Source of the DNA: Candidatus Latescibacterota bacterium
GTDB lineage: Bacteria; Latescibacterota; UBA2968; GCA-2709665
Assembly (NCBI GenBank): GCA_965237675.1
Contig: OZ250150.1
Location: 2,624,001 to 2,688,000 of the forward strand
Direction: 5' to 3'
DNA: 64,000 nucleotides
Shown: positions 26,357-52,005 of the stretch, piece by piece
How the letters are laid out: each line of letters begins with the position of its first letter
Position numbering within the stretch: position 1 is the first letter of the stretch
The notes under the pieces: model-generated
Seen by the model: only the letters and a program-made list of their open reading frames with translations
What the model was told of the DNA's origin: nothing
The model's database searches: none
Made by a program: the position numbers and the translations under genes

Positions 26357-26380
26357 TCACGTCGTGCAAAGGGGTTCCGT

Positions 26381-27500: not shown

Positions 27501-28574
27501 ATGCCGATTGCCGATAGCGTCAGGAAGGCCAGGGACGAACTGGATGCCCACGTGCGGGAAACCGTGGCCTGGCATTTCAATCCGGACACGGGCTGCCCGT
27601 TCTGGTTGGAATTCGCTGAGGAGCTGGATTTCGATCCGCGCAAGGAGATCGGCGGATTTGCGGATCTGAAGATTCTGGGACATTTTCAGGACGACTGGCT
27701 GCGCGGCGGACCCGTACGCCGGTGGATTCCCCGGGGAAGCGCAGGGAAGCGGACGTATGTTTTCGAGACGGGCGGATCCACCGGGGTGCCGAAATACCGG
27801 ATCAGTCAGGAAGATTTCCAGATCGACTACGAGATGTTCAGCAGGCACCTTTCAAACGAGACGTTTCCCAGGGGGGCGGACTGGCTGATGCTGGGTCCCA
27901 CGGGACCGAGGCGGCTGCGGCTGGCGGTTGAATATCTGTGCCAGATCCGCGGCGGGATCTGTTTCCTGGTGGACCTGGATCCCCGGTGGGTGAATAAACT
28001 GATCGTGCGTGGCGCGCTCCAGGAACTGGACCTCTACAAAGCGCACGTGATCGACCAGGCGCTGACCATTTTGCGGGCGAACGACAATGTGAAGTGTATG
28101 TTCACAACCCCCAAGCTTCTCGAAGCGATCTGCGAAAAGATTTCGTTGGAAAAGGTCGGGATATCGGGGATTTTCTGCGGTGGGACCGAGATGGACGCGC
28201 AATTCAACCGATTCGCCAGGGAGGAATTGGTTCCCGGTATCGATTTTGTGCCGACATACGGAAATACATTGATGGGGTTGGCTTATTCCAAACCGCTGGA
28301 GCCCGCGGACAATTACGCCATTACCTATTATCCGCCGGTGCCCAGGGCGGTTATCGAGTTGGCGGACCCCGAAAATCCGGACGAACCGGTGGCATACAAC
28401 GCCGTTGGCAGGGTGATGTTGACGACGCTGACCCGGGAGTTTTTCATGCCGAGGTTTCTGGAACGGGACCAGGGAGAGCGGGCGGAACCCAGCGAAAGGT
28501 TTCCATGGGACGGGGTACGAAATCTGGGTCTGTTCTCCGAGATGCAGGAGTCGGTCGTCGTCGGGGTTTACTAG
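27501..28574 (+). CDS. EhpF-like adenylate-forming enzyme (ANL superfamily, phenazine-tailoring type)
   Basis: WHFNPDTGCPFW, P-loop ETGGSTGVPK, GPTGP, DLDPRWV, TTPKLLE, YGNTLMG, RFLERD, as I recall them for EhpF/EsmD2-type proteins. Confidence 0.7.
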   Translation: MPIADSVRKARDELDAHVRETVAWHFNPDTGCPFWLEFAEELDFDPRKEIGGFADLKILGHFQDDWLRGGPVRRWIPRGSAGKRTYVFETGGSTGVPKYRISQEDFQIDYEMFSRHLSNETFPRGADWLMLGPTGPRRLRLAVEYLCQIRGGICFLVDLDPRWVNKLIVRGALQELDLYKAHVIDQALTILRANDNVKCMFTTPKLLEAICEKISLEKVGISGIFCGGTEMDAQFNRFAREELVPGIDFVPTYGNTLMGLAYSKPLEPADNYAITYYPPVPRAVIELADPENPDEPVAYNAVGRVMLTTLTREFFMPRFLERDQGERAEPSERFPWDGVRNLGLFSEMQESVVVGVY

Positions 28575-28663
28575 GCGGCCCTCTGTCGCTGTCTTCCGGT
28601 CGGGGCGGACGACGGGAATCGCGCCTCGCTTCCGGGTTACGGTGAACGCACCAGGAGGTTGGC

Positions 28664-30088
28664 GTGACGCATATCCCGATTTTGCGGGCGGGAAGGCCCT
28701 ATACGAGCCTGGACGTCCAGGAAGTTCCGCACGTCCGGACCGGAGAACCGATGGTCCGGGTGAGCCAGGCGAACCCGGGGCTGATCGCGAGGGATCTCAA
28801 CGCCGCGCCGGCGAACAGACGTGCCCTGGAAGCGTTGAGCGTTTCCGATCTGGTAACCGTCACCCGGAGGGCTGCCCGGTTTTTCTCGGATGCGGTTCTT
28901 CCGCTGGATAACGAACCGCAATCGCCTGAGGACTATGTCCGCCAGGTCTCGGGTACAACGGGGATTCCCGAAGCGCTTTGCCGGGCGAACATGGGAAAAA
29001 TCCGCTTGGTTTGCAGCCAGATCGAAGAGGTGCTCGGCGGGCTGACGCGTGACCTGGATTTGTCGGTTCTGGATGGGGGGTGGAACCCTGAAAGCGTTCG
29101 GCCATTGAGCTATCTGTGTCAGACTGATGCGCTGGGCGCGGTGTTGCCAAGCAATTCCCCCGGGGTGCATTCGCTCTGGATTCCGGCGATTTCACTGAAG
29201 GTGCCCCTGGTGTTGAAGCCCGGACGGGAGGACCCCTGGACGCCGTTTCGTATTGCACAGGCGTTTATTGCCGCAGGATGCCCGGTCGAAGCGTTCGGCC
29301 TGTATCCGACCCGGCATGCCGGCGCCAACGAAGTCCTTCTGCGGTGCGGGCGCTCGCTGTTGTTTGGCGGAGGCGCCACGGTGGCGCCGTGGCGCTACGA
29401 TCCACGGGTTTCGATTCACGGCCCCGGCCGGAGCAAGGTGATTCTTGGTGAAGACCTGGTCGACCGCTGGGAAGATTATCTGGATGTGATCCTGGTTTCG
29501 ATAACTGCAAACGGCGGGCGATCGTGCATCAATGCTTCGGGCGTTTGGACGCCCGCACACGGACGGGAGATTGCCGACGCGCTCGCGTGCCGGCTCGCGG
29601 AGATCGTCGCGCGGCCGCTGGACGATCCCGACGCGCAACTTGCCGCGTTTGCCAATCCCGCGTCGGCGGTTCAGGTTTCGAACACGATTGACGCCCACCT
29701 GGGAACCGGCGGCGCGACGGACCTGACGGCGGTCTTGCGCCGGAACCGGCTCGATGAGATAGACGGTCTCACGTTTTTGAATCCCACGCTGGTGTGGTGT
29801 GAGTCTCCCGAACACCCGCTGGCGAATACGGAGTTCCTGTTCCCTTACGCGGGCGTGGTCGAAGTGCCGCAGTCGGAGGTGCACAACCGGATCGGGCCCA
29901 GCCTGGTGGTGACCGCGTTGACGGAAGATGAAGCCTTGATCAGTCAGTTGCTGAGTTCACCTTCCGTGGAAAGACTGAACCTCGGGCCGATTCCCACGAA
30001 CCGGATTTCCTGGGACCAGCCTCACGAAGGCAATTTGTTCGAACATCTCTACCGGCAGCGGGCCTTTCAGTTCGCCCGGGGAGCGTAG
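28664..30088 (+). CDS. ALDH-fold protein (EhpG/LuxC-like acyl reductase)
   Basis: LPSNSPGVH, LVLKPG, HGPGRSK, catalytic Cys in NGGRSCINASG, EFLFP, PHEGNL; GTG start after GGAGG. Confidence 0.75.
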   Translation: MTHIPILRAGRPYTSLDVQEVPHVRTGEPMVRVSQANPGLIARDLNAAPANRRALEALSVSDLVTVTRRAARFFSDAVLPLDNEPQSPEDYVRQVSGTTGIPEALCRANMGKIRLVCSQIEEVLGGLTRDLDLSVLDGGWNPESVRPLSYLCQTDALGAVLPSNSPGVHSLWIPAISLKVPLVLKPGREDPWTPFRIAQAFIAAGCPVEAFGLYPTRHAGANEVLLRCGRSLLFGGGATVAPWRYDPRVSIHGPGRSKVILGEDLVDRWEDYLDVILVSITANGGRSCINASGVWTPAHGREIADALACRLAEIVARPLDDPDAQLAAFANPASAVQVSNTIDAHLGTGGATDLTAVLRRNRLDEIDGLTFLNPTLVWCESPEHPLANTEFLFPYAGVVEVPQSEVHNRIGPSLVVTALTEDEALISQLLSSPSVERLNLGPIPTNRISWDQPHEGNLFEHLYRQRAFQFARGA

Positions 30089-30098
30089 AATCATTCGG

Positions 30099-31214
30099 AT
30101 GGAACCCTTCGACCTTCATCCTGCGCCGCGAGTGATATTCGGGGAAGGCGCACTGGCGCAACTCGGGGATCTGGTGGATGGCCTGGGTGGAAGGCGGATT
30201 CTGCTCGTTACCGATCCCGGAATTGTCAACGCGGGCATCGCGGACAGGGCGTTGGCGTTGCTGCGGTGCTCCGCCCGCGACGTCTTCCTTTTCGACGGCG
30301 CGGGTGAGAACCCCACGACGGCCCACGTCGACGCGGGGGTGGAGGTTGCCACGGCGCATGGCGGCATCGGTCTCATTGTGGGCCTGGGGGGCGGCAGCGC
30401 GATGGATTGCGCCAAGGGGATCAATTTCGTTCTGACAAACGGCGGGCGGATCGAAGACTACCGGGGAATGGGCAGGGCGGAGCGCCCGATGCTGCCGTCG
30501 ATCGGCGTCCCCACAACCGCGGGAACCGGGAGCGAGGCACAGTCCTACGCGTTGATCGCCAGGTCAGATACCCACGAGAAGATGGCCTGCGGAGACCTCA
30601 AGGCGCGGTTTCGCGGCGTCATTCTGGATCCTGCGCTCACGTCGAGCGTTCCAATACATGTGGCTGCCGCTTCGGGTATCGATGCCATTGCGCATGCGGT
30701 GGAGAGCTACGTGTGTACCCGGCGCAACGCGGTGTCGCGCATGTACGCGCGGGAGGCGTGGCGGTTGCTCGCGACGGGATTCGAAGGGGCGTTGGAGCCG
30801 CCGGCAGGCCCCCACGCCAGGGCCGCAATGCTTTTAGGCGCGCATTTCGCAGGGGCCGCTATCGAGAATGCCATGCTGGGCGCCGCCCACGCGTGCGCCA
30901 ATCCGCTGACGGCTCGGTACGGCATCACGCACGGCGTCGCGGTGGGCACGATACTTCCGTCGGTGATCCTGTTCAACGGGGAAACGGATGGGGCGCTTTA
31001 CGAGGGATTGGGGTTGACGGCCGGGGCGCTCGCCGAGCAGATCGTCCGATTCAGACACACGGCGAATCTGCCCGGACGCCTGTGTGAACTTGGGGTTGGC
31101 CGGGATCGGCTGCCGGAGCTGGCGGCGGAGGCGGCAAACCAGTGGACGGGGACGTTCAATCCGCGGCCGGTCCGCGAAGCCGAATATCTGGCGTTATATG
31201 AAGAGGCGTATTGA
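30099..31214 (+). CDS. Iron-containing alcohol dehydrogenase
   Basis: GGGSAMDCAK, PTTAGTGSE, DAIAHAVE, AH...THG metal ligands. Confidence 0.92.
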   Translation: MEPFDLHPAPRVIFGEGALAQLGDLVDGLGGRRILLVTDPGIVNAGIADRALALLRCSARDVFLFDGAGENPTTAHVDAGVEVATAHGGIGLIVGLGGGSAMDCAKGINFVLTNGGRIEDYRGMGRAERPMLPSIGVPTTAGTGSEAQSYALIARSDTHEKMACGDLKARFRGVILDPALTSSVPIHVAAASGIDAIAHAVESYVCTRRNAVSRMYAREAWRLLATGFEGALEPPAGPHARAAMLLGAHFAGAAIENAMLGAAHACANPLTARYGITHGVAVGTILPSVILFNGETDGALYEGLGLTAGALAEQIVRFRHTANLPGRLCELGVGRDRLPELAAEAANQWTGTFNPRPVREAEYLALYEEAY

Positions 31215-32355
31215 GTTTCGGTTCAAGCGACAAGCGAGGAACATTGAGAACGTATTTCTTTTCTTCTGCTTGTTGCACGTAGCGGTTCCCGTCGGCGTTG
31301 CCGGCGAGGCGTCCTGGCCGCAGTTTCGCGGCGATGCGCAATCCACCGGGCTTGCTCGGGGAGCGCTGCCGGGTGAACCGGTGGTGGTGTGGACTGCGCG
31401 GGTGGCAACGGGGATCGAGTCCACGGCGGCGATCTGGCACGGTACGGTCTATGTGGGCGGGCTGGACGGCAAGCTCTATGCATTTGATCTGGACCGTGGC
31501 GGATTGAAGTGGACGTATACGGCCCGGGGAGAAGTCAAGTCGTCACCGATGGTTGCAGACGGCGCCGTTTTTTTTGGTGATGGCGGCGGCGGGTTCCACG
31601 CCGTGGAGGCCGGAACGGGGAGAGGGATCTGGACGTTCCAGACCGGGGGGGAGATCATTTCTTCGGCCGCGGGGGATGGGGCCCGGGTGTTGTTCGGATC
31701 TTACGACGAGTTTCTCTACTGCCTCGCAACGAAGGACGGTTCGTTATTGTGGAAATTGGAGACGGGCGGTTACGTCCACGGAACGCCGGCCCTCGTGGGC
31801 GGACGGGCGGTTGTCGCGGGGTGCGACGGCCTGATGCGGGTGGTGAACGTGGCCGATGGGGTTGAAGCCTCAAACGTGGTCGTGTACGACTACGTCGCGT
31901 CGAGCGTCGCGGTGCACAACGGACGCGCCTACCTGGGTAATTTCGGAAACCAGGTCCTGGGTGTGGATCTGTCGGCGGCGAAGGTCGTGTGGCGGTACGA
32001 GCATCCCAGCCGCAAGCATCCTTACTACGCCTCAGCAGCGGTGACCGCCAAGCACGTTATCGTGGCCGGGCGGGACAAAATGGTGCGTGCACTGAATCCG
32101 GACACGGGCGCGTTGCTGTGGATACGCTCGTTCCGTTCTCGCATCGATTCCTCCCCGGTGGTCGCGGGCAATCGTGTTTTTGTGGGGACAACAGGGGGAC
32201 GGGTTCTGGCGTTGGATTTAAATACGGGCGAAAAGGAGTGGGAATTCGTAACCGGCTCGGAAATTCTGGCCTCGCCCAGCGTGGCCGGCGGCAGACTCGT
32301 GATAGGTACGACCGACGGGACCCTTTATTGCTTTGGGAGTGAAACGAAAAAATGA
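31198..32355 (+). CDS. Secreted PQQ-like (BamB-type) beta-propeller protein 1
   Basis: Hydrophobic signal, WPQFRGD, repeated SSP...G.LYA.D..G...W blades; start uncertain. Confidence 0.82.
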   Translation: MKRRIEFRFKRQARNIENVFLFFCLLHVAVPVGVAGEASWPQFRGDAQSTGLARGALPGEPVVVWTARVATGIESTAAIWHGTVYVGGLDGKLYAFDLDRGGLKWTYTARGEVKSSPMVADGAVFFGDGGGGFHAVEAGTGRGIWTFQTGGEIISSAAGDGARVLFGSYDEFLYCLATKDGSLLWKLETGGYVHGTPALVGGRAVVAGCDGLMRVVNVADGVEASNVVVYDYVASSVAVHNGRAYLGNFGNQVLGVDLSAAKVVWRYEHPSRKHPYYASAAVTAKHVIVAGRDKMVRALNPDTGALLWIRSFRSRIDSSPVVAGNRVFVGTTGGRVLALDLNTGEKEWEFVTGSEILASPSVAGGRLVIGTTDGTLYCFGSETKK

Positions 32356-33698
32356 CCACACAAGTTCACGTTCCGGAACCTGCAACCTCCAGGAAAGACT
32401 GGAAGGAAACACAGGTCGGCAGTGTGTTCGTTTCCAACTATCCGCCCTATTCATTCTGGCAGGATGAGCACAACTCAAAGGTTGTGGATATGTTGGACAC
32501 GGCGGATCCGTCGGCAAGTCGGGTGCCGCTTGGTCTGTACCTGCATATCCCATTCTGCAGGAAGCGGTGCAAGTTCTGCTATTTCCGGGTGTACACGGAT
32601 CGCAACAGTTCGGAGATCCAGGTCTATCTGGACGCGTTGGCCAGAGAGGTGGAATATTACGCCGGCCTGCCCAGAATTGCCGGACGCAGCCTGCAATTCG
32701 TCTATTTTGGAGGAGGGACGCCGTCTTATATCAGTGTAAAACACCTGGTGGCGCTGGTGGATCGGTTGAAAGGTGTCATGACCTGGGACGGCGCCGAAGA
32801 GGTGGCGTTCGAGTGCGAGCCGGGTACACTCTCCAGGCCCAAGGTGGAGGCCATTCGCGAGATCGGCGTGACGCGATTGAGCCTGGGATTGGAGAACTTG
32901 AATGACGGGATTCTGAGAGAGAACGGCCGCGCGCACGTCGGCAAAGAGATTTACGAGGCCATGGGTTGGGTGAAGTCACAGGAATTCGCGCAGGTGAACG
33001 TGGACCTGATTTCGGGGATGGTGGGTGAGACGTGGAAGACATGGAAGGAGACGGTGCAGGGCACGATTGACCTGGACCCGGACAGCGTCACCATCTATCA
33101 GATGGAACTTCCGTTCAATACCACGTATTCCAGGTCGATCCTGGATGGGAGTAGACTGAGCGTGGCCGATTGGGAGACGAAGCGGGCGTGGCATGCCCAT
33201 GCGATTGACGCGTTCGAGGCCGCGGGCTATGAGATCTCAAGCGCGTATACGCTCGTAAAGAAGGGGCGATTGAAACGTTTCGTCTATCGAGACGCGCTCT
33301 GGCGCAGCGCGGACCTGATCGGCGCGGGAGTCGCGTCGTTTTCACACGTGGGCGGGATACACTTTCAGAATTACACGCAGTGGGACCCCTATGTCGAGGC
33401 CTGCCGGCAGGAGCGGTTGCCGCTGAACAGATCCTTTGTTCCGACCGACGAGGAGCGACTGGTTCGGGAGATGATCCTGCAACTCAAGCTCGGAAGGATT
33501 CAGACCGGCTATTTCAAGGATAAATTCGGCGTGAATATCCTGGAACGGTTCAGCGAGGCCTACCGGAGGCTGAAGGATTTCGGAATGTTGGATTTCGATG
33601 CGCGGGAGGTGAGGTTGAGTCCCGAAGGGTTGTTACGGGTCGACCAGTTGCTACCGGAGTTTTATCACGAGGTCTACAGGGATTCAAGGTACACCTGA
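32352..33698 (+). CDS. HemN-like radical SAM enzyme
   Basis: LYLHIPFCRKRCKFCYF (CxxxCxxC), YFGGGTPS, ECEPG, RLSLG, NVDLISG. Confidence 0.88.
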   Translation: MTTQVHVPEPATSRKDWKETQVGSVFVSNYPPYSFWQDEHNSKVVDMLDTADPSASRVPLGLYLHIPFCRKRCKFCYFRVYTDRNSSEIQVYLDALAREVEYYAGLPRIAGRSLQFVYFGGGTPSYISVKHLVALVDRLKGVMTWDGAEEVAFECEPGTLSRPKVEAIREIGVTRLSLGLENLNDGILRENGRAHVGKEIYEAMGWVKSQEFAQVNVDLISGMVGETWKTWKETVQGTIDLDPDSVTIYQMELPFNTTYSRSILDGSRLSVADWETKRAWHAHAIDAFEAAGYEISSAYTLVKKGRLKRFVYRDALWRSADLIGAGVASFSHVGGIHFQNYTQWDPYVEACRQERLPLNRSFVPTDEERLVREMILQLKLGRIQTGYFKDKFGVNILERFSEAYRRLKDFGMLDFDAREVRLSPEGLLRVDQLLPEFYHEVYRDSRYT

Positions 33699-33723
33699 AC
33701 CCGGCCTATGTGATCCGTAGCGT

Positions 33724-33830
33724 GCCTGGGCACTGAACCCGGACCCTGAGCCGGTCCCCGAGCCGGCGCCCTGAGCCTGTCGAAGGGTAGCGAAACGCGG
33801 GCGTTTCGACAAGCTCAACCCGGGCAACGC
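33724..33830 (+). repeat. REP-like cluster (CCTGAGCCTGTCGAAGGG ... TTCGACAAGCTCA)
   Basis: Tandem ccctgagccgg-like units, then an inverted pair; same family at 57998 and 58930-59102. Confidence 0.75.
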
Positions 33831-33892
33831 ACGCAACGAACGCCAATCGCGTCGCTGGTGGGTCCATTCAGGTCCGAAAGGGCGAACGCAAG

Positions 33893-35110
33893 ATGCATGT
33901 AATGTCGGCATTACTTACCGCCTTATTGTTACTTGACGTACAATCCGTTCGTGCGGATTGGCCGCAGTGGTTGGGGCCGGATCGGACCGGCGTTTCTCAG
34001 GAAACCGGATTTCTGAAGATCTGGCCGAAGGGCGGTCCGGGCGTTGTATGGAAGAAGAACCTTGGCGAGGGGTTTTCGGGGATTTCGGTGGCGAATGGCC
34101 GGGTGTTCACCATGTTTGCCGCGGGGGACGATGAGTATGTCGTCTGTCTGGACGAGGAATCGGGCGCTGAAATATGGCGGGTCAGGACCGGGGGGAACTT
34201 CAAGGAGTGGCAGGGGGGCAACGGACCGCGTTCACAGCCGACGGTAGATGGAGAACGGGTCTATGTCCTTGGCGCGGAGGGCTGGTTGTACGCGTTGAAC
34301 GTTGAAAACGGCAAAAGGATCTGGGCGCTGGATCTGGTCGACGGCCTGGGCGGCAAGTTCCCACGGTTCGGATTTTCAACGTCGCCGCTGGTGGAAGGCG
34401 ACCTGTTGTTCCTGGAGGCGAGCACATCGCCGGGCACATTTCTGGCGTTGTACAAAGACAGCGGTAAACTCAAATGGGCGTCTCAAAGCGACGTGGCGTC
34501 TTATTCGTCGCCCGTTACGCTGGATCTTGCGGGCGTGCGTCAGGTGGTCTATTTTTCGGGTGAAGCCGTGGTCGGGCTTTCACCCGCGGACGGCACCCTC
34601 TATTGGCGGTTCCCCTGGAGAACCTCGTACGACCTGAATATCGCCACACCCATTCTTGTGCCTCCGGATCAGATCTTTATCTCGTCGGGCTATGATCATG
34701 GCGCAGCTTTACTTCGGGTTGAGGCAGGGAGCGACGGGATAGCGGCCACCAGAGTCTGGGAGAACCGGCGGATGAAGAATCATTTCGGCACGTCCGTGTT
34801 GATCGGGGACTATATATATGGATTCGACAATGCCATCCTGAAATGTATCGAAGCCCGGACCGGAAAAGAGCAATGGAAGCATCGTGGGTACGGCAAGGGG
34901 TCGTTAATCTCTGCGGACGGGCATCTCATCATTTTGAGCGACAACGGCAGGCTTGCCCTGGCGTTGGGTTCTCCTGAAGGATTTCAGGAGAAGGCCGGCG
35001 TGCAGGTGCTTACCGGCCGAAGCTGGACGGGGCCAACCCTGGCCAATGGCCGTGTGTTCGTGCGGGATATGCGAAAAATCGTCTGCCTGGATCTCAGGTC
35101 GGGCGAATAG
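33893..35110 (+). CDS. Secreted PQQ-like beta-propeller protein 2
   Basis: Signal peptide ending VRA, DWPQWLGPDRTG, GPRSQP, SYSSP, NIATP, WTGPTLANG. Confidence 0.85.
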   Translation: MHVMSALLTALLLLDVQSVRADWPQWLGPDRTGVSQETGFLKIWPKGGPGVVWKKNLGEGFSGISVANGRVFTMFAAGDDEYVVCLDEESGAEIWRVRTGGNFKEWQGGNGPRSQPTVDGERVYVLGAEGWLYALNVENGKRIWALDLVDGLGGKFPRFGFSTSPLVEGDLLFLEASTSPGTFLALYKDSGKLKWASQSDVASYSSPVTLDLAGVRQVVYFSGEAVVGLSPADGTLYWRFPWRTSYDLNIATPILVPPDQIFISSGYDHGAALLRVEAGSDGIAATRVWENRRMKNHFGTSVLIGDYIYGFDNAILKCIEARTGKEQWKHRGYGKGSLISADGHLIILSDNGRLALALGSPEGFQEKAGVQVLTGRSWTGPTLANGRVFVRDMRKIVCLDLRSGE

Positions 35111-35118
35111 ATCGTGCT

Positions 35119-38525: not shown

Positions 38526-38544
38526 GTTCACGCGGGAAGCGGAA

Positions 38545-39804: not shown

Positions 39805-40031
39805 GCCGCCCCCTTCGCAAGAACAACGAGGGTTATGGTTGGACAGTACCGAGCTTCAAGAATCCAACGGGGCTTCGGAACCGTCGAGCCTTCCACTGTG
39901 TGAAGATTCAGCAGGCGATTGACCATCCTTGCGTCGTTCCGGCGCTCAAATGGCAGGCATGCCGCCCCGCGCCGTTGGCCGCGGGCGACGGGATTACGGT
40001 TCTGGCGAAACATTTGAAGGCGGATCGTCCG

Positions 40032-41324: not shown

Positions 41325-41385
41325 TCCGTTTGTTCCCGATGGGTGTCAGGACGATCCTCAATCGGGATAAGAAAGGAAGGATTCA

Positions 41386-41886
41386 ATGCCAGCCGAACAA
41401 GCGTCGTCATCGGGGCTGACCTGGTTGATCTTTGCCGCGATGACGGTGGGGTCTTGGGGATTGTACGGAATACTTCTGCACACCGGACAGATCGCAATGG
41501 CCGATCCCGTGAACGGGCGGTACAAGGCGTTCCTTCTGGTGGGTGTCGCCTATCTGTTGACCGCCGTGATCGGATCAATGGTTGTTCTTTGGGTGAACGG
41601 AGCGGACTGGTCGTTTCCCGCGCGCGGGTTGACATGGTCTCTGCTCGCCGGCACCGCGGGCGCAATCGGCGCATTCGGCGTGCTTCTCGCCTTCGGCGCC
41701 AGGGGTACCCCTGCCGTGGTGATGTCGATCGTCTTTGCAGGCGCTCCTATCGTAAACGCTGTGGTGTCGCTGGCCATGCACCCGCCCTCAGGTGGATTTG
41801 GCGGTCTGAACTGGCAGTTCGTGTTGGGTATCGTGCTGGCGGCGCTGGGCGGGTGTCTGGTGACACTTTTCAAGCCAGCGTCCTGA
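41386..41886 (+). CDS. Small 5-TM membrane protein (EamA/DMT-like)
   Basis: Five hydrophobic segments; WG.YG and GA.GA...A...G...VVM.IVF.GAPIV. Confidence 0.7.
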   Translation: MPAEQASSSGLTWLIFAAMTVGSWGLYGILLHTGQIAMADPVNGRYKAFLLVGVAYLLTAVIGSMVVLWVNGADWSFPARGLTWSLLAGTAGAIGAFGVLLAFGARGTPAVVMSIVFAGAPIVNAVVSLAMHPPSGGFGGLNWQFVLGIVLAALGGCLVTLFKPAS

Positions 41887-41939
41887 GGACGCCCGGGCGG
41901 GTGATAGCGGAGGTTGGAGAATTCATTCGAGGGATCGTT

Positions 41940-42380
41940 ATGCCATGTGATTTCCATACCACGCGCAGAATAGAGTTTTCGGATACGGATATGGCCGGGA
42001 TTGTGCATTTTTCCCGGTTTTTTGTTTTTATGGAGGCGGTCGAGCACGCATTTCTGCGTTCGCTTGGTACCAGCGTGACGGGTGCCCGGGAAGGGCGGAA
42101 AGTCGGGTGGCCCCGGGTGGGCGCGTCGTGCGATTACGTGAATCCCGCCCGATTCGAAGACGTGCTCGATATCAGGATGAAAGTAATCAGAAAAGGGACG
42201 AGTTCGATAACGTACGGATTCGAGTTTCTCCGGGACGGCGTTATGATTGCACGTGGCCGATTGAGCACGGTGTTCTGCCTGTGCTCCACCGGGGGGCCGT
42301 TCCGTTCCATACCGATTCCCGATTTTATCGCGGATCAAATTCAGGAGTCAGTGGAGGCGGAGGATGACGCTGAGGGCTGA
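41940..42380 (+). CDS. Acyl-CoA thioesterase (4HBT/YbgC hotdog fold)
   Basis: RRIEFSDTDMAGIVHFSRFFVFME, CDYVNPARFED. Confidence 0.88.
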   Translation: MPCDFHTTRRIEFSDTDMAGIVHFSRFFVFMEAVEHAFLRSLGTSVTGAREGRKVGWPRVGASCDYVNPARFEDVLDIRMKVIRKGTSSITYGFEFLRDGVMIARGRLSTVFCLCSTGGPFRSIPIPDFIADQIQESVEAEDDAEG

Positions 42381-43023
42381 GCGGGTTTCCAAACGATACG
42401 GGGATGTGTCCGTTCTCCGTGACGCCTCGTTCGAGATGGCGCGAGGCCAGTCCTTGGCGATTGTCGGACCCTCGGGATCCGGCAAGAGTACGTTGCTGCA
42501 CGTGCTTGGCACCCTCGACAGACCGTCTTCGGGTCGCGTAGAAATCGACAACCGGGACCCTTACGTCCTTGCGGAGAAGGATCTGGCGCGCTTTCGGAAT
42601 CGCGGGATCGGATTCGTATTCCAGGACCACCATCTGCTGCCCCAGTATTCCGTATTGGAGAACGTGCTGATTCCGACGCTGGCTTTTGGTGATGCTGGAA
42701 TCGACGCGGAGGATCGGGCGCGGGCCTTGATCGACCGGGTTGGGCTCGCACATCGGATAGACCACCGCCCGGCGGCCCTGTCCGGCGGCGAACGCCAGCG
42801 TGTGGCGGTGGCGCGGGCGCTGGTCAACCGGCCCGGGCTGCTTCTCTGCGATGAGCCGACGGGCAGCCTGGATCGGGCGCGGGCCGACGAAGTCGGCGAC
42901 CTGCTGTTCGAATTGCATGCTCAAGAAGGAAATATTCTGATCGGGGTCACGCACAGTCTGAAGATGGCCGCACGGTTTGAACGCCGGCTTGAGTTGCGGG
43001 AGGGAGCGTGCGTCGAAGTCTGA
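42364..43023 (+). CDS. ABC transporter ATP-binding protein (LolD/MacB-like)
   Basis: GPSGSGKST, GFVFQDHHLL, LSGGERQRVA, LCDEPTG, VTH. Confidence 0.93.
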   Translation: MTLRAERVSKRYGDVSVLRDASFEMARGQSLAIVGPSGSGKSTLLHVLGTLDRPSSGRVEIDNRDPYVLAEKDLARFRNRGIGFVFQDHHLLPQYSVLENVLIPTLAFGDAGIDAEDRARALIDRVGLAHRIDHRPAALSGGERQRVAVARALVNRPGLLLCDEPTGSLDRARADEVGDLLFELHAQEGNILIGVTHSLKMAARFERRLELREGACVEV

Positions 43024-46000
43024 CCTTTTTCTGGCGTATTCACCTGTCCGTGATGCTCGCCGTGGCGGTGGCCACCGCTGTGCTGACCGGGGCCCTGATG
43101 GTGGGCGATTCGGTACGGGACAGCCTGCGTGATCTGACCCTCGACCGGCTGGGCGATATTGACCATGCGCTCGTTTCGGAACGTTTCTTCCGTGCGGGTC
43201 TGGCGGAGGATCTCGAGCGGAATATGGAAGCATCGTCGGTTGCGCCGGCAATCGTCCTTCGCGGAACGGCTACGCACCAGCAGGGCGGCGCGCGGGCGTC
43301 TCGGGTACGGATCCTGGGCATCGGGTCCCGGTTCGGGGATCTGTTCCATGCGGAGATCCCGGATCTGTCACGCCACGGGATCCCAACACCATTTGTCGTA
43401 AATGAATCGCTGAGGCAAGAGTTGAATGCGCGCGTCGGCGACGGGATTCTACTCTCGTTTGCACGGCCCGGCAGTATCCACCGGGAATCGCTGTTCGGGC
43501 GAGGCGGGGTCTCGGAATCGATCCAGACCGTGCGAGTACAACTCACGGGTGTGCTGCCCGACCGGGGAATGGGTCGTTTCGGTTTGGCCTCGAGTCAGGA
43601 TGCGCCGCTGAATGCGTTTTTATCTCTGCACGTGTTACAGGATGCGCTGGGATTGCCGGATCGGGTGAATATGCTCCTGGTATCAGAGGGGTCGCGGGAT
43701 GCCGGCGATCCGGGGTCGGCGCTCTCCCGGACGGCAACGTTGGACGATTTCGGGCTTTCGATGCGGGTGCAAGCCGATTATCTCACCATTGAAAGCACTC
43801 GGTTTTTCCTGAAACCTCATGTGGCGGATACGGTCCTCGGCCTGGCCGAGGAATGGGGGATGCCACATATGGCGATACTGACCTACCTGGCCAATACGAT
43901 CCAGGTAGGGGATCGCGTATTGCCCTATTCAACGATCGCTGCAATGGGCGCGGGGAGGGTCGGTAGGTTGCGTCTGACGGACGGGAACGGCGCGCCGGTT
44001 CCTGGCGAGGGGGAGTTGCTGCTGAATACCTGGGCGGCGGAGGACCTGCAGGCGAATACCGGCGACGCCGTCGACGTGGTCTATTTCGAGGTCGGTCCGA
44101 AGGAAGCGTTGAATACACGGCGTGTCACATTCAGGCTGGCCGGCGTGGTTGCCATGGAAGGATTGGGCGCCGATTCCCTATTGACGCCGAAATTCCCGGG
44201 TTTGCACGGCGCGGAAGATATGCACGCCTGGGATCCGCCCTTTCCGGTGGATCTGAAGCGCATTCGGCCCGTGGACGAAGCCTATTGGGACGCCTACCGC
44301 GCCGCGCCCAAAGCCATCGTGTCGGCTTCGACCGGACAACGTCTGTGGCGAAGTAGATTCGGCAATCTGACGTCCATTCGGATTGGCCCCGTGCCCGGGG
44401 AAGACATCACGCGATCCGCCGAACGGTTTCGGAGGAGGCTTGGCAGGGCGCTCTCGCCCGAATCAGCCGGGCTTGTATTTCAGCCGGTGAAAGAACTGGG
44501 CCTCGCCGCTTCTTCGGGGTCGACGGATTTCAGCTGGCTTTTCAGCGGATTCAGCCTGTTTCTGATTGTTTCGGCCGCGTTGCTTGTGGGCCTGCTCTTC
44601 CGACTGGGCCTGGAACAGCGTGCGGACGAGGTGGGGGTGTTAATGGCGTTGGGTTTTACCGCCGGAGCGATCCGAAGGCGTTTTATGGGTGAGGCGATCT
44701 GCCTGGCCGGACTGGGGGGGCTGGGGGGCCTTGCGGGAGGAACGGCGTACGGCTGGATCATGATCGCCGGATTGCGCACCTGGTGGGTCCCGGCCGTGGG
44801 GACCACGGAACTCTCCTTGCACGTGAGCGGGTCAAGTCTGGCGGGGGGATATGCGATTTCGCTGATTGTGGTTCTGGTCGCGGTGTGGAAGACCGTCCGG
44901 CAACTGGGCCGCGCGCCCGTTCGCGCCCTCTTGTCGGGGAATGTCGAACCGGAATCAGCGGATCGCGGGCGACGGGCAAGGGTGTATGTCCTCGCGGGTC
45001 TGGGGTTGGCCGCGGCCTGCCTCGGTGGTGCTGTAGACGCGGGCCGCGAAGCGGCGATGGCGCTGTTTTTCGGTTGCGGGGCGTTTCTTTTGGTATCGGG
45101 GCTGGGCATACTCGCCATGTGGTTTCACGGCAGGCGACATGCCGCGGCAACGGGAATCTGGAGAATGGGCCTGCGGAACAGCGCACGAAATCCGGGGCGA
45201 AGTCTGCTTTGCGCATCATTGATCGCGTGCGCCTGCTTTGTGGTTGTGTCTGTTGGCGCGCAGCGGCGCGCCGATGTCACCGAGGATGCGTTGAGCAACC
45301 GGATGTCCGGTGGAGGGGGGTTTCAGCTGGTGGCCGAGACGGACGCGCCGCTTTATCACGATCTCAATTCGGAAGACGGCCGGTTTGAGCTGGGGTTTTC
45401 CGACGAGGATGCGGATGTTCTGGACGGGGCGCGGGTGATGCCTTTCCGTGTGTTGCGGGGAGAAGACATGAGTTGCCTGAATCTCTACCGGCCCCGCCAT
45501 CCACGGGTTCTGGGTGTGCCTGAAGCGATGATTCAACGGGGCGGATTTGCGTTCGAGCGGTTGTTGGATGGAACGGAAACGCCGTGGTCTCTATTGACGC
45601 GGCGCCTGGAGCCGGATGTGATTCCGGCTTTTGGAGACGTGAACTCGGTGACGTGGATCCTGCACAAGGAACTGGGCGACGAGATCTCACTGCAGACAGA
45701 CACCGGGAAGGTTGTCAGGCTGCGGCTCGTCGGACTGTTGAAGAATAGTATTTTTCAGAGTGAATTGCTGGTATCGGAGCCGAATTTTGTCGCGAATTTC
45801 CCCGATCGCAGCGGGTATGGTTATTTCCTGGTCGAGACCGACCGGCCACGTGAATTGGGGCCCCTGCTGGAACGGCGGTTGCAGGACGCCGGTCTCGACG
45901 CAACGTCGACCGCGGCCAGGCTCGCGCGTTACCGGACGGTGGAGAATACGTACCTGTCCACGTTTCAGACGCTTGGCGGGCTGGGGTTGCTTCTGGGCAC

Positions 46001-46328
46001 GTTCGGGTTGGGGATTGTGATGGTGCGGAATGTGGTCGAACGTCGGGGGGAACTCGCGGCGCTGCGGGCGATGGGGTTTCGCAGGTCGCTATTGTCCGGA
46101 CTCCTCTTTATGGAGAACGGATTTCTGATGTCGATGGGCCTGGTCATCGGCGGTGTGTCCGCGGTTGTGACCACCGTGCCCCATTCCACGGTCGGCGATT
46201 TGCCCTGGGGGTCGCTGCTGGCAACCCTCTGTCTGATCTTCCTGGCGGGCCTGCTTTCGGGCGCCGTGGGGATTTTTGTCGCGCTCAGGACCCCTCTGTT
46301 ACCTGCGTTGAAGCGCGAAGGTGCCTGA
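43008..46328 (+). CDS. Double-FtsX/MacB-type ABC permease with large periplasmic domains
   Basis: 1106 aa; two FtsX-like TM blocks (EQRADEVGVLMALGF and ERRGELAALRAMGF). Confidence 0.87.
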   Translation: MRRSLTFFWRIHLSVMLAVAVATAVLTGALMVGDSVRDSLRDLTLDRLGDIDHALVSERFFRAGLAEDLERNMEASSVAPAIVLRGTATHQQGGARASRVRILGIGSRFGDLFHAEIPDLSRHGIPTPFVVNESLRQELNARVGDGILLSFARPGSIHRESLFGRGGVSESIQTVRVQLTGVLPDRGMGRFGLASSQDAPLNAFLSLHVLQDALGLPDRVNMLLVSEGSRDAGDPGSALSRTATLDDFGLSMRVQADYLTIESTRFFLKPHVADTVLGLAEEWGMPHMAILTYLANTIQVGDRVLPYSTIAAMGAGRVGRLRLTDGNGAPVPGEGELLLNTWAAEDLQANTGDAVDVVYFEVGPKEALNTRRVTFRLAGVVAMEGLGADSLLTPKFPGLHGAEDMHAWDPPFPVDLKRIRPVDEAYWDAYRAAPKAIVSASTGQRLWRSRFGNLTSIRIGPVPGEDITRSAERFRRRLGRALSPESAGLVFQPVKELGLAASSGSTDFSWLFSGFSLFLIVSAALLVGLLFRLGLEQRADEVGVLMALGFTAGAIRRRFMGEAICLAGLGGLGGLAGGTAYGWIMIAGLRTWWVPAVGTTELSLHVSGSSLAGGYAISLIVVLVAVWKTVRQLGRAPVRALLSGNVEPESADRGRRARVYVLAGLGLAAACLGGAVDAGREAAMALFFGCGAFLLVSGLGILAMWFHGRRHAAATGIWRMGLRNSARNPGRSLLCASLIACACFVVVSVGAQRRADVTEDALSNRMSGGGGFQLVAETDAPLYHDLNSEDGRFELGFSDEDADVLDGARVMPFRVLRGEDMSCLNLYRPRHPRVLGVPEAMIQRGGFAFERLLDGTETPWSLLTRRLEPDVIPAFGDVNSVTWILHKELGDEISLQTDTGKVVRLRLVGLLKNSIFQSELLVSEPNFVANFPDRSGYGYFLVETDRPRELGPLLERRLQDAGLDATSTAARLARYRTVENTYLSTFQTLGGLGLLLGTFGLGIVMVRNVVERRGELAALRAMGFRRSLLSGLLFMENGFLMSMGLVIGGVSAVVTTVPHSTVGDLPWGSLLATLCLIFLAGLLSGAVGIFVALRTPLLPALKREGA

Positions 46329-46444
46329 GTTCCGCAAAGGCTCGATGAGAATTGGTTTTCGATTGCGGACGGTTGTGGTGTATATTTGATCGAAGATTCG
46401 ACGATCCAGCCAACGCCGTCAATTTCTGGTGAAAGGAGCGCAGA

Positions 46445-47746
46445 ATGAAGACGTTATTCTCGGCTTTAGCCGCGTTGTTTCTGTTGATCGTTACCGGACA
46501 GGCGGCGTCAAATTGGCCGCATTGGCGCGGGCCGAACGGGAATGGGCTGGTCGATGACGGGAATCCGCCCGTGGAGTGGGGCGAGGGAAAGAACATAAGA
46601 TGGAAGGTTCCGATCCCGGGTCTGGGCCATGCGACGCCGATTGTATGGGGGGACCGGATATTCGTTCAGACGGCCGTCCCGACGGAAGAAGTCACGGGGA
46701 GTGACGAACGGGGTCGGCGCGCGGCACCGACGAATCTGTTTCAGTATAAAGTTCTTGCGCTGGACCGGCGAAATGGAAAAACGGTGTGGGAAAAGACGGT
46801 TCGGGAAGCGCGTCCCCACGAAGGGATGCATCAGACGGCATCATTCGCGTCGAATTCGGGCATCACCGATGGAGAGAATCTGTATGCATTTTTTGGTTCG
46901 CAGGGCCTGTACTGCCTGGATATGGACGGCAACTTGAAATGGGAGAAAGATCTGGGTCAGTACAGGAGCCGAAACGCTTTTGGCGAGGGCGCTTCGCCCA
47001 CGATTTACGACAACACACTGATCATCAACTGGGATCACGAAGGGGATTCGTTTATTGTGGCCCTGGATAAGAAAACGGGCAGGGAACTCTGGCGAAACGA
47101 GCGGGATGAGGTCACCTCCTGGTCCACGCCGCTGGCGGTCGAACACAAGGGAAAACGTCAGATCATCGTGAGCGCGTCAAGCCGCACCCGGGGTTATGAC
47201 CTGGAGACCGGGGCGCTGATCTGGGAATGCGGCGGGTTGGGGACGAATGTGATTCCGACACCCGTGCATGCAAATGGGGTGGTCTACGTGACAAGCGGTC
47301 ACGGGAACCCGGCTATGCAGGCGATTTCGCTGGATAGGGCGAAGGGTGATATTTCGGGGTCGGATTCGGTGCTCTGGTCGATTACCCGGGATACGCCCTA
47401 CGTGTCGTCACCGCTGCTTTACGGTCAGAGGCTTTTCTTCTTGAAGAATCGACGTGCGATTCTGTCCTGTTACAACGCCAAAACGGGCGAAGCGTTTTTC
47501 GGTCCACAACGCCTGGAGGGGATGGGCAGCATCTACGCGTCGTTGATCGGCGTGAAAGATCGCGTGTATATCGCCGGCCTGGAGGGCACGACGCTGGTGG
47601 TCAAAAACAGCCCCGAATTCGAGATTCTGGCGGCAAACACGTTGGATGAAGGGACTGCGGCCTCGCCGGTAGTGGTGGGCGATGCGCTCTATCTGAGGGG
47701 GCGCCGGCATTTGTATTGTATCGCGGAAGACCGGATGGATCAATAG
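46445..47746 (+). CDS. Secreted PQQ-like beta-propeller protein 3
   Basis: Signal peptide, NWPHWRGPNGNG, GHATP, GASP, SWSTP, YVSSP, ASPVV. Confidence 0.87.
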   Translation: MKTLFSALAALFLLIVTGQAASNWPHWRGPNGNGLVDDGNPPVEWGEGKNIRWKVPIPGLGHATPIVWGDRIFVQTAVPTEEVTGSDERGRRAAPTNLFQYKVLALDRRNGKTVWEKTVREARPHEGMHQTASFASNSGITDGENLYAFFGSQGLYCLDMDGNLKWEKDLGQYRSRNAFGEGASPTIYDNTLIINWDHEGDSFIVALDKKTGRELWRNERDEVTSWSTPLAVEHKGKRQIIVSASSRTRGYDLETGALIWECGGLGTNVIPTPVHANGVVYVTSGHGNPAMQAISLDRAKGDISGSDSVLWSITRDTPYVSSPLLYGQRLFFLKNRRAILSCYNAKTGEAFFGPQRLEGMGSIYASLIGVKDRVYIAGLEGTTLVVKNSPEFEILAANTLDEGTAASPVVVGDALYLRGRRHLYCIAEDRMDQ

Positions 47747-47793
47747 GTCAAAATCTGCGGTTTAAACGGTAATTGTCGGAGAGGGGAGTTTCG

Positions 47794-48792: not shown

Positions 48793-48793
48793 T

Positions 48794-51968: not shown

Positions 51969-52005
51969 GCCTCTTGTTGGTTGCTGTTGTTGTGTTTTGC
52001 TACAC

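Follow-up and report, generated by a model that had tools for sequence, protein, structure and literature searches.

An ancient three-module gene cluster of Latescibacterota and Poribacteria: a putative pathway for processing an imported carboxylic acid

The stretch of Latescibacterota DNA analysed here (64 kb, called the window throughout) contains a real cluster of 15 to 17 genes that is built from three modules, namely A (g01-g06), B (g08-g09 with an adjoining importer) and C (g10-g14). The gene set is old and probably mostly vertically inherited, and it is retained in the majority of Poribacteria as well as in many Latescibacterota. In our view its likely function is the uptake of a carboxylic acid, which would be halogenated, reduced and glycosylated before delivery to the cell envelope. 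The full reading, a single old and largely vertically transmitted three-module pathway that processes an imported acid and builds no scaffold, is given a probability of about 0.5. The phylum-wide conservation, the module structure, the exchange of importers and the EhpF/EhpG reading of module A come from the present analysis.

The open reading frame listing places 15 tightly packed genes on the plus strand between 27501 and 47746, with five overlapping pairs (g03/g04 by 17 nt, g04/g05 by 4, g07/g08 by 4, g12/g13 by 17 and g13/g14 by 16) and a largest gap of at most 227 nt, much as the initial annotation had described them. The enzyme families named there were likewise recovered by Pfam, NCBIfam and PDB profile matches (Table 1). 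Its families for the first propeller, the glycosyltransferase and the thioesterase were right and their starts were not: these now lie near 31198, at 40032 (rather than at the ORF start at 39567) and at 41940, respectively. Similarly, the five hydrophobic segments of the protein called DMT-like (g11) are present, but no Pfam or NCBIfam model matches it. Pfam scans of chosen ORFs from both strands (about 90 aa or more at 24-52 kb, at least 150 aa elsewhere) agree with the earlier claim that PKS, NRPS, carrier-protein and phz genes are missing from the cluster and show none in the whole window either; the carrier-protein domain PF00550, matched three times genome-wide, has no match in the window.

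Table 1. Positions, predicted functions and supporting matches of the cluster genes and the adjoining importer.
Feature	Position	Strand	Assignment	Basis
g01	27501..28574	+	357-aa adenylating enzyme of the EhpF type, limited to the ANL N-terminal domain	PDB EhpF match
g02	28664..30088	+	ALDH-fold partner, predicted acyl-enzyme reductase, 474 aa	profile alignment with ALDHs
g03	30099..31214	+	iron-containing (group III) alcohol dehydrogenase	Pfam Fe-ADH 1.3e-43, ADH_Fe_C
g04	31198..32355	+	BamB/PQQ_2-type beta-propeller with N-terminal hydrophobic leader	Pfam PQQ_2, Beta-prop_ACSF4
g05	32352..33698	+	radical SAM enzyme similar to, but distinct from, HemN	Radical_SAM, HemN_C
g06	33893..35110	+	BamB/YxaL-type eight-bladed propeller, predicted secreted	PQQ_2; AF2 model
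g07	35119..37251	+	TonB-dependent receptor, accessory	TIGR01783, 247.5 bits (cut-off 223.5)
g08	37248..38525	+	PaaK-type aryl/acyl-CoA ligase	AMP-binding_C_2
g09	38545..39804	+	flavin-dependent halogenase, PltA/Mpy16-like	Trp_halogenase Pfam match; WFWYIP
g10	40032..41324	+	GT4 glycosyltransferase, unusual N-terminal half	Glycos_transf_1, Glyco_transf_4
g11	41386..41886	+	five-helix membrane protein, undescribed family	five hydrophobic segments
g12	41940..42380	+	YbgC/4HBT-type hotdog thioesterase	4HBT_2, 4HBT
g13	42364..43023	+	ABC ATPase, closest to LolD/MacB/DevA	ABC_tran
g14	43008..46328	+	duplicated FtsX/MacB-type permease, 1106 aa	two FtsX stretches, MacB_PCD
g15	46445..47746	+	third BamB/PQQ_2-type propeller, lineage-specific	PQQ_2
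TAXI-TRAP	47773..50728	+	TAXI solute-binding lipoprotein and fused TRAP permease, probable substrate importer	TIGR02122, TIGR02123 above cut-off

The importer begins 26 nt after g15 and is probably part of the same unit as g01-g15; it is 64-77% identical to importers found by the ligase or halogenase genes in Poribacteria loci. Other lineages carry an SSF symporter, weakly PanF/PutP-like, in place of the TAXI-TRAP system; six of the 10 distant genomes, and 20 of 80 loci, encode this symporter between g09 and g10. One Poribacteria genome has TRAP, SSF, GT4 and g11 genes side by side. Whichever type is present, the Na+/solute symporter or TAXI-TRAP importer always adjoins module B or C, and it is for this reason that the absent scaffold synthase is probably best explained by uptake of the acid through an importer whose gene flanks that of the ligase, the halogenase or the GT4.

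In module A, g01 matches the PDB structures of EhpF (3l2k and 3hgu) over residues 6-342 (E 3.2e-40 for 3l2k); its Pfam AMP-binding match is weak and no NCBIfam model matched. The earlier EhpF-like call is strengthened by the ALDH partner g02, which is homologous to the ALDH following EhpF in the phenazine cluster of Pantoea and which, more generally, shares 26-30% identity across 94-98% of its length with ALDHs encoded after EhpF-like genes in Pantoea and Streptomyces plasmids. Profile alignment covers residues 156-412 of g02, which retains Cys288 and Asn164 and has an invariant His252 in place of the general-base Glu. Judged from sequence, g01 and g02 are thus an EhpF/EhpG-type pair of an adenylase and a predicted non-hydrolysing ALDH; their homologues are paired beside phenazine genes in Pantoea and, in Streptomyces, beside genes for DAHP synthase and aminodeoxychorismate synthase. 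The alcohol dehydrogenase g03 stays under all NCBIfam equivalog cut-offs. RNA-library contigs cover relatives of g01-g05, although carried-over DNA may be their source.

The ligase of module B, g08, finds its nearest matches among true CoA ligases (PaaK 4r1l 207 bits, 2-hydroxyisobutyryl-CoA synthetase 184, PaaK1/2 162-172). The WxWxIP flavoenzyme of the initial annotation proves to be a member of the Trp_halogenase family, and its profile matches PDB entry 8zop, PltA, Mpy16 and CndH at 236-266 bits, with alignments at full length to PltA, Mpy16, Bmp2 and CndH at 198-245 bits. Its GxGxxG, K73 and WFWYIP elements are invariant in 10 orthologues, and in the alignment with PltA K73 falls at the Lys pair of that enzyme. 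In module C, only residues ~180-417 of g10 match solved GT4s, while 13 orthologues all have its MYCGxC (CxxC) motif unchanged. The g11 family comprises 917 representative clusters, commonly occurs as two or three tandem copies (three in one Poribacteria genome) and has orthologues at 66-84% identity; its AF2 model is poor (pLDDT 60). TIGR00051 and TIGR02799 stay under cut-off for g12, g13 scores 241 bits against a LolD equivalog cut-off of 308, and g14 has about nine hydrophobic segments.

The gene set is not an orphan as had been proposed, being widely kept in Latescibacterota, Poribacteria and a KSB1-labelled phylum. We found g01 in 98 of 168 Latescibacterota genomes (67-98% identity), in 158 of 176 Poribacteria genomes (72-77%) and, among the 61 genomes sampled from the KSB1-labelled phylum, in 12; Planctomycetes and Acidobacteria, suggested earlier as carriers, are not represented among the 80 loci listed of 268 related ones. 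The order of g01-g05, g08-g11, g13 and g14 is kept over 35 kb in 8/10 distant genomes of the same class, and therefore the grouping exceeds chance; synteny extends to most Latescibacterota-labelled loci among those listed. Lack of co-conservation in other genomes had been named beforehand as an argument against the cluster; the genes are co-conserved, so that this argument fails. In four Poribacteria genomes and one KSB1 genome g01, g10 and g14 each have a single orthologue, even megabases apart, and module A is colinear in four of these five. One clade of the g09 tree holds 25 of the 26 Poribacteria-labelled rows.

That several unrelated operons have become neighbours by chance is the least credible of the explanations weighed here. 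The modules are unlinked in some Poribacteria and g07 and g15 come and go, the latter having orthologues (56-62% identity) in only two of 10 distant genomes. Nevertheless, g01, g09 and g14 are gained and lost jointly within Latescibacterota: the halogenase is present in 94 of 98 g01-positive genomes and none of the 70 g01-negative ones, g14 is present in 96 of the 98, and the per-genus tallies of g01 and g14 (genera g1-g30) are identical. Moreover, all modules are kept in all five out-of-phylum genomes examined.

The TonB receptor was correctly noted in the cluster and wrongly counted with its core: at E<=1e-40 it is absent from all four Poribacteria genomes and from four of 10 Latescibacterota loci, and it is a lineage-specific addition. 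Since the remainder of the cluster is kept where this receptor is missing, a metallophore cycle, in which a chelator would leave through the MacB-type pump (compare pyoverdine and PvdRT) and be retaken by the TonB receptor, appears highly improbable, even though g07 passes the cut-off of a siderophore-receptor subfamily and, according to its entry title, the structure of Rv3035, which the g06 model closely matches, is a complex with the iron-uptake protein FecB. Nor does the cluster encode an NRPS, an NIS synthetase or any enzyme obviously suited to making a chelating group.

Comparable clusters have been reported from sponge microbiomes as a 'Halo_AMP pseudoclass', defined by a halogenase and an AMP-binding enzyme, with 20 described components and with 9% of the families in Latescibacterota and 8% in Poribacteria (Loureiro et al., bioRxiv 10.64898/2026.08.03.742642). 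In the parts of this 2026 preprint available to us, they are listed as uncharacterised and no halogenase and AMP-binding family in the sponge data held a MIBiG reference (bioRxiv 10.64898/2026.08.03.742642).

Activation, reduction, halogenation and glycosylation of an acid, followed by periplasmic delivery, as first suggested for this locus, is still the most economical reading. What was directly observed is the gene families with their catalytic motifs, the synteny and co-occurrence of the genes, and the importers beside them; we infer the substrate, the product and the steps, and the order given here as the likely one is conjectural. The TAXI-TRAP importer here, or the Na+/solute symporter elsewhere, would take up an organic acid, for which an aryl or heteroaryl structure is the likeliest. 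The ligase g08 would form its CoA thioester and g09 would chlorinate or brominate it, with the CoA arm taking the place of the carrier protein on which relatives of g09 depend. The known PltA-type halogenases use carrier-bound substrates, and we know of no citable precedent for a CoA-bound one. The thioesterase g12 may then free the acid, after which a carboxyl group would be converted without a carrier to the aldehyde by g01 and g02, via an acyl-adenylate, a thioester on Cys288 of the ALDH devoid of hydrolytic Glu and hydride transfer. Reduction to the alcohol is ascribed to g03, and g05 may add a carbon unit or perform a related radical step before g10 glycosylates the product. Fe-ADHs mostly act on small, polar substrates and the SSF symporter is weakly PanF/PutP-like, and the acid may therefore not be aromatic. 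Crossing of, or exit from, the inner membrane could proceed through g11 and the MacB-type g13/g14, with the BamB/YxaL-like propellers as putative periplasmic adaptors handling the product. For secretion, pumps of the MacB type usually depend on an adaptor together with an outer-membrane duct, and the absence of both from the cluster counts against this reading.

The same enzymes could instead serve the catabolism or detoxification of imported aromatic or halo-aromatic acids, through uptake, CoA thioester formation, oxidation or reduction, and expulsion of a glycosylated product. An importer, CoA ligase, thioesterase, ALDH fold and ADH together are typical of degradation operons, and the record labels of the matches listed give sponge symbionts and sediment bacteria as the carriers. 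We regard this as quite unlikely, given that the halogenase motifs are intact and invariant, that g02 is without the hydrolytic Glu required by an oxidising ALDH, that the cluster is without a ring-cleavage or beta-oxidation gene, and that the GT4 and exporter are kept everywhere among the out-of-phylum genomes examined.

Identities of 67-77% across phyla, together with the dispersal of modules, are atypical of a specialised-metabolite cluster, and a housekeeping envelope or cofactor role may apply instead. An envelope glycolipid is unlikely but deserves some weight: the thioesterase would free a fatty acid, g01-g03 would convert it to a fatty alcohol, the GT4 would make an alkyl glycoside, g11 would flip it, and the MacB/DevCA-like pump and propellers would bring it to the outer membrane, giving a product similar to heterocyst glycolipids or chlorinated bartolosides. 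Strong conservation and module dispersal fit such a structural function, as do the conserved block of GT4, small membrane protein, thioesterase, ABC ATPase and FtsX protein, the additional match of g13 to the DevA family (145 bits) and the g01/g02 pair, which we take to resemble LuxC/LuxE fatty acid reductase logic. Matches to the bartoloside exporter BrtI are also frequent in Halo_AMP clusters according to the preprint text available (bioRxiv 10.64898/2026.08.03.742642). However, where their context is known EhpF/EhpG-type pairs adjoin aromatic acid pathways, the Pfam LuxC and LuxE families are unmatched at E<=0.001, g08 is PaaK-like rather than FadD-like, and the adjoining importers are of a small-solute type.

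The initial annotation also allowed for a cofactor, and it can be speculated that a periplasmic cofactor or ligand is made for the BamB/PQQ_2-type propellers, apo-proteins that would be loaded after export. All three propellers are predicted to be secreted from N-terminal hydrophobic leaders judged by eye (residues 16-40 in g04, whose orthologues are 49-63% identical); g04 and g06 are core and interleaved with biosynthetic genes in three phyla, and PQQ-like domains are common in Halo_AMP clusters and rare in others in the available preprint text (bioRxiv 10.64898/2026.08.03.742642). This role is nonetheless very unlikely, as the PQQ dehydrogenase model yields 37-75 bits against a cut-off of 480, and the predicted structure of g06 (pLDDT 84.4) appears closer to the scaffold proteins YxaL, Rv3035 and BamB (Z 35.6, 34.2 and 33.4; rmsd 2.8-2.9 A over 319-340 residues) than to PQQ dehydrogenases (Z 29-30).

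The imported-acid pathway thus shares parts with several known systems. With EhpF/EhpG of the D-alanylgriseoluteic acid cluster of Pantoea agglomerans, for which reduction of a phenazine carboxylate has been proposed, it shares adjacent genes for an ANL enzyme of ~360 aa that lacks the C-terminal domain and for an ALDH-fold protein of ~470 aa; across 98% of its length g02 shares 26% identity with the ALDH whose gene follows that of EhpF, itself preceded by phzA/B, D, E, F and G. In the window the Pfam scans detect no phenazine genes, and the pair is followed by the Fe-ADH, a propeller and the radical SAM enzyme. The latter resembles HemN and the class C radical SAM methyltransferases (NocN/NosN, ChuW/HutW) in its CX3CX2C motif, HemN_C domain and PDB matches (HemN 1olt 115 bits, NocN 85 bits), but Y and F follow the motif and g05 therefore lacks the fourth Cys, which is of significance in HemN; it also misses every equivalog cut-off (hemN 173 bits against 325; HutW, STM4012 and HemW likewise). 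The halogenase shares GxGxxG, Lys and WxWxIP with CndH and with PltA, Mpy16 and Bmp2, which act on carrier-bound pyrrolyl groups, whereas the carrier protein, proline adenylase and dehydrogenase of that route are absent from the cluster and g09 is accompanied instead by a CoA ligase of the PaaK type and a thioesterase of the hotdog fold.

Among type VII ABC transporters (MacB, LolCDE, DevCA), g13 is closest to LolD, MacB and DevA and g14 bears the FtsX and MacB periplasmic-domain signatures, but the permease is one duplicated protein, the LolD cut-off is missed and a membrane-fusion or outer-membrane partner is absent from the cluster. The g06 model has the BamB-sized eight-bladed fold of BamB, YxaL and Rv3035; the cluster propellers differ from BamB in their scores (66-137 bits against an equivalog cut-off of 285) and in being without a lipobox, and from all three in that their genes sit inside a small-molecule pathway. 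Finally, the available preprint text reads the Halo_AMP clusters as host-specific specialised-metabolite clusters, without naming a product, and describes in them the combination also found here, a halogenase and an AMP-binding enzyme with frequent PQQ-like domains and GT, TE, rSAM, ABC and TonB genes (bioRxiv 10.64898/2026.08.03.742642).

The initial annotation placed 15 co-directional genes of named families at 27501-47746, and this inventory is right apart from small corrections to three start sites (see the table, where the genes are numbered g01 to g15 in order). Five gene pairs overlap by 4-17 nt and the largest gap in the ORF listing is 227 nt. The accompanying statement that PKS, NRPS, carrier protein and phz genes are missing also holds for the ORFs that were scanned across the window: no PKS or NRPS family was matched, and the carrier-protein family PF00550 has three matches in the 5.6-Mb genome and none inside the window. 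A genome search for the PqqC family returned no match, but control genomes were likewise without one. Promoter and terminator scans of 33000-52000 stayed at chance level (8 versus 6.1 expected and 18 versus 22.0 expected, respectively). Metatranscriptome contigs about 92% identical to g01-g05 occur in four runs from two studies, although contigs cannot show transcription; one of these contigs is 16.8 kb long, and parts without coverage prove nothing.

Genes of the cluster and the importer that follows it (positions in the window)
Gene	Position	Strand	Assignment
g01	27501-28574	+	EhpF-like adenylase; PDB 3l2k, E 3.2e-40
g02	28664-30088	+	ALDH fold
g03	30099-31214	+	Fe-ADH
g04	~31198-32355	+	PQQ_2/BamB-type propeller
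g05	32352-33698	+	HemN-like radical SAM enzyme
g06	33893-35110	+	propeller
g07	35119-37251	+	TonB-dependent receptor
g08	37248-38525	+	PaaK-like ligase
g09	38545-39804	+	flavin-dependent halogenase
g10	40032-41324	+	GT4
g11	41386-41886	+	five-helix membrane protein; no match in Pfam/NCBIfam scans
g12	41940-42380	+	4HBT hotdog thioesterase
g13	42364-43023	+	ABC ATPase closest to LolD
g14	43008-46328	+	double-FtsX permease, 1106 aa
g15	46445-47746	+	propeller
TAXI-TRAP importer	47773-50728		starts 26 nt 3' of g15

The cluster is real and strongly conserved, and it brings known enzyme families together in an uncharacterised combination. It had been described as an orphan, which is wrong. Orthologues of g01 were found in 98 of 168 Latescibacterota species genomes (67-98% identity), all within four families of a single class, the ten other families having none; they also occur in 158 of 176 Poribacteria (72-77%) and 12 of 61 sampled KSB1-labelled genomes. 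The nearest relatives are labelled Candidatus Latescibacterota; more than 8000 database proteins match g01, and the best 120 of these have at least 72% identity. Conserved synteny, proposed earlier as a check, was borne out when 35 kb around g01 were compared in ten distant genomes: the order of g01-g05, g08-g11, g13 and g14 is kept in eight, with identities of 43-87%, and in the other two insertions move parts beyond the fetched 35-kb stretch. Orthologues of g09 (E<=1e-120) are present in 94 Latescibacterota genomes, every one of them g01-positive (94/94, versus 0/70 among g01-negative genomes). For g14 (E<=1e-100), 96 of the 98 genomes with g01 have an orthologue, and genomes lacking g01 contain six g14-like genes that are more distant (35-38% identity). 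From the co-occurrence of g01, g09 and g14 it follows that the three modules, namely A (g01-g06), B (g08-g09 with the importer) and C (g10-g14), were gained and lost together.

One of the main rival explanations is that unrelated operons are here mere neighbours. Each of four Poribacteria and one KSB1 genomes holds single orthologues of g01 (73-77%), g10 (57-62%) and g14 (51-54%), with megabases between these genes in two of the four Poribacteria. Four of these five genomes have module A colinear; module C (GT4, g11, thioesterase, ABC and FtsX genes) is whole in one genome and divided in another. A pattern scan with one genome per species yielded 268 stretches with relatives of g09, and the 80 listed carry the labels Latescibacterota, Poribacteria, KSB1, Gemmatimonadota and, once, Deltaproteobacteria. 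In a quick, midpoint-rooted g09 tree, 25 of 26 Poribacteria-labelled rows form one clade (SH-aLRT 97) and the deep forks lack resolution, a topology consistent with mostly vertical descent within phyla.

Other parts of the window hold systems of their own. A complete type I Zorya anti-phage system was recognised by PADLOC at 6557-14353 (+), with ZorA1 (E 1.2e-50), ZorB1 (5e-63), ZorC1, which bears the EH signature (3.4e-112), and ZorD1 (5.2e-292), which combines an SNF2 helicase and an Mrr-like nuclease; a Uma2-family endonuclease gene (5934-6560) lies just upstream, and the GC content falls to 0.531 at 14001-16000, directly after these genes, versus about 0.60 elsewhere, which may mark the edge of an acquired island. 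A short ORF at 61301-62089 (+), 262 aa long, encodes the last part of a reverse-transcriptase domain together with a group II intron maturase domain; it is probably a group II intron protein that is truncated or has a wrongly placed start. Upstream of the cluster, a PcRGLX/GH127-like glycan-degrading enzyme and three GFO/IDH/MocA oxidoreductases are encoded at 22485-27481 (+) and 729-1817 (+); these genes are not kept beside the cluster in the ten distant genomes compared.

We read the cluster as a pathway that imports, activates, halogenates, reduces, glycosylates and exports an acid, and give this reading a probability of about 0.5. Of 10 distant Latescibacterota genomes, 6 have a Na+/solute symporter gene between halogenase and GT4, and so do 20 of 80 listed related loci; these symporters are 58-80% identical to each other and weakly PanF/PutP-like. 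The window is without such a gene and has the TAXI-TRAP importer immediately 3' of the cluster, and in Poribacteria TAXI-TRAP genes 64-77% identical to it adjoin ligase and halogenase. TRAP, SSF and GT4 genes stand together with three tandem g11 paralogues in one Poribacteria genome. Since two unrelated importers swap at the same place, we infer that the substrate is an organic anion taken up from outside. Such uptake would account for the missing scaffold synthase. An imported anion could also feed a catabolic or detoxifying route, a main rival that shares the importer and the CoA-ligase relative g08 with the proposed pathway and has the glycosyltransferase g10 and the permease g14 to accommodate. 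In two Poribacteria loci (L110 and L154) a 3-keto-disaccharide hydrolase family gene directly adjoins the TRAP permease. Genes for HAD hydrolases, a Kelch protein, a glucose/sorbosone dehydrogenase (L110) and an APH-like kinase (L154) stand there among those of the ligase, halogenase and importer.

In the proposed pathway, g01 and g02 would form a two-protein, carrier-free system reducing an (aromatic) carboxylate to the aldehyde, which g03 would convert to the alcohol. Residues 6-342 of the 357 in g01 match EhpF chains (366-369 aa), and the ANL C-terminal domain is missing from g01 as it is from EhpF. The g02 profile aligns with aldehyde dehydrogenases and the nucleophilic Cys288 and Asn164 are kept, with an invariant His252 at the general-base Glu position of the 'LELGGKS' motif; a Streptomyces homologue likewise lacks this Glu. 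The His-for-Glu change is compatible with ATP- and NAD(P)H-dependent carboxylate reduction, though it is no proof of it. Plasmids carry homologues of g01 and g02 side by side: in Pantoea agglomerans the pair directly follows phzA/B, D, E, F and G (the ehp layout), in Streptomyces it adjoins DAHP synthase and aminodeoxychorismate synthase genes, and further pairs are found in haloarchaea, Burkholderia and E. coli. Taken together, the sequences and plasmid contexts support carrier-free two-protein carboxylate reduction as the predicted function.

One such EhpF/EhpG-like pair lies on a plasmid of Streptomyces sp. ADI95-16 (215163-217654 of the record) in surroundings that resemble an aminobenzoate-type aromatic cluster with DAHP synthase and aminodeoxychorismate synthase, where two further AMP-binding enzymes and FAD monooxygenases are also encoded; several Streptomyces goshikiensis plasmids carry the same pair. 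Open frames of 833-835 aa at g01 in one genus were considered as a fusion and rejected as spurious, the upstream part having no domain and being overlapped by another ORF. No weight was given to 16 long homologue forms, each seen once, as both of those inspected (P0124 and P0122) contain frameshift-like stretches.

By its sequence g09 is a genuine halogenase: GxGxxG, Lys73 and WFWYIP (WxWxIP) are invariant in 10 orthologues, and in the alignment the Lys falls at the Lys pair of PltA and Mpy16. The solved relatives of g09 use carrier-bound substrates. Its neighbours here are a relative of true CoA ligases (g08) and a hotdog thioesterase, and with these in place of a carrier a CoA thioester is a reasonable candidate substrate.

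The initial label of g05 as HemN-like does not extend to HemN itself, as the equivalog score is 173.3 bits versus a cut-off of 324.95 and all HemN-family cut-offs were missed; its motif reads C-RKR-C-KF-C-Y-F, without the fourth Cys of HemN's CX3CX2CXC, and g05 may be a class C methyltransferase or an enzyme of another radical step. For g10 only the donor half matches solved GT4 enzymes, and the acceptor half bears an invariant CxxC motif; an envelope glycolipid route is a main rival, and would draw on the same GT4 and permease genes as the proposed pathway. The receptor g07 scores above the cut-off of the TonB-dependent siderophore receptor subfamily (TIGR01783, 247.5 versus 223.5 bits), a feature that speaks for a metallophore cycle, another main rival; the receptor is not core to the cluster, and its orthologue (E<=1e-40) is absent from all four Poribacteria genomes and from four of ten Latescibacterota loci. 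The product might also serve as a ligand for the propellers, again a main rival. In a representative-chain fold search with the g06 model (pLDDT 84.4), the scaffold propellers YxaL, Rv3035 and BamB (Z 33-36) scored higher than PQQ enzymes (Z 29-30).

The membrane protein g11 belongs to an undescribed family of 917 representative clusters, often with tandem domain copies, and Pfam scans of 10 long relatives assigned no family; its predicted structure is poor (pLDDT 60, pTM 0.37) and unfit for fold search. At L154:6314-7809, in the Poribacteria genome G168, three tandem paralogues (76%, 50% and 49% identical to g11) adjoin GT4, and many relatives in the protein library hold two or three copies in one chain. 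Such copies within one chain suggest that g11 may work as a multimer.

A fuller joint reading, which we offer tentatively and consider rather unlikely in all its parts at once, is that of a core, vertically inherited halogenase pathway, present in about 90% of Poribacteria species genomes and one Latescibacterota class, in place of a sporadic antibiotic cluster. It would turn an imported acid into a halogenated, glycosylated envelope or periplasmic molecule by means of a carrier-free adenylase with a reverse-run ALDH and a PltA-type halogenase acting on a CoA thioester. We know of no established precedent for either a carrier-free two-protein carboxylate reductase of this kind or a PltA-type halogenase on a CoA thioester.

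Poribacteria and Latescibacterota are abundant, uncultured sponge symbionts and marine-sediment dwellers, and many brominated sponge compounds have, to our knowledge, no known producer. A halogenase system retained across most members of these lineages is a concrete, testable candidate for the source of a lineage-wide halogenated molecule, with the importer and CoA ligase as its defined entry and the MacB-type pump as its exit. The EhpF/EhpG-type pair, which is also found on plasmids of Streptomyces, Pantoea, Burkholderia and haloarchaea, would be of biocatalytic interest if it is a true carrier-free carboxylic acid reductase. We caution that such clusters should not be taken as host-specific secondary metabolism. 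Beyond the initial annotation and the preprint of Loureiro et al. (bioRxiv 10.64898/2026.08.03.742642), the step made here is that the halogenase system looks like part of the core physiology that entire lineages inherit.

In that preprint (August 2026), as far as its available part goes, sponge metagenomes were searched for clusters combining a halogenase with an AMP-binding enzyme; 840 such clusters, grouped into 267 families, were obtained, none with a MIBiG reference in the authors' own data, and 9% of the families were assigned to Latescibacterota and 8% to Poribacteria. PQQ-like domains and GT, TE, rSAM, ABC and TonB genes are frequent in them, and this part of the text names no product. 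Literature searches beyond the preprint found nothing specific to this gene set, and the accessible portions of PMC9426513 and PMC6644159 hold no description of the cluster.

From LolCDE the cluster differs in the LolD score of g13 (241 bits versus a cut-off of 307.75) and in having no LolC/LolE-type permease, g14 matching the ADOP model only, and weakly. The propellers, of 385-433 aa, reach 30-75 bits with TIGR03075 versus the cut-off of 480 for PQQ-dependent dehydrogenases. The ketosynthase and acyl carrier protein genes of aryl polyene, flexirubin and xanthomonadin clusters were not found among the scanned ORFs, and a FlxY-like score was 166 bits versus a cut-off of 520. The EhpF/EhpG-type cassette is a close parallel to g01 and g02: g02 shares 26% identity over 98% of its length (E 6e-24) with the Pantoea ALDH whose gene lies directly 3' of an AMP-binding gene in a phz-type cluster, and 30% with the Streptomyces partner ALDH, whereas the phenazine core context is missing here (PhzA/B, PhzD, PhzE, PhzF and PhzG without match in the scanned ORFs of the window). 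Alignment of the halogenase g09 with PltA and Mpy16 covers the whole protein, but the cognate carrier protein of this carrier-dependent subgroup is not in the cluster. With g09, g01 and g08, the cluster belongs to the Halo_AMP pseudoclass as defined in the available part of the preprint.
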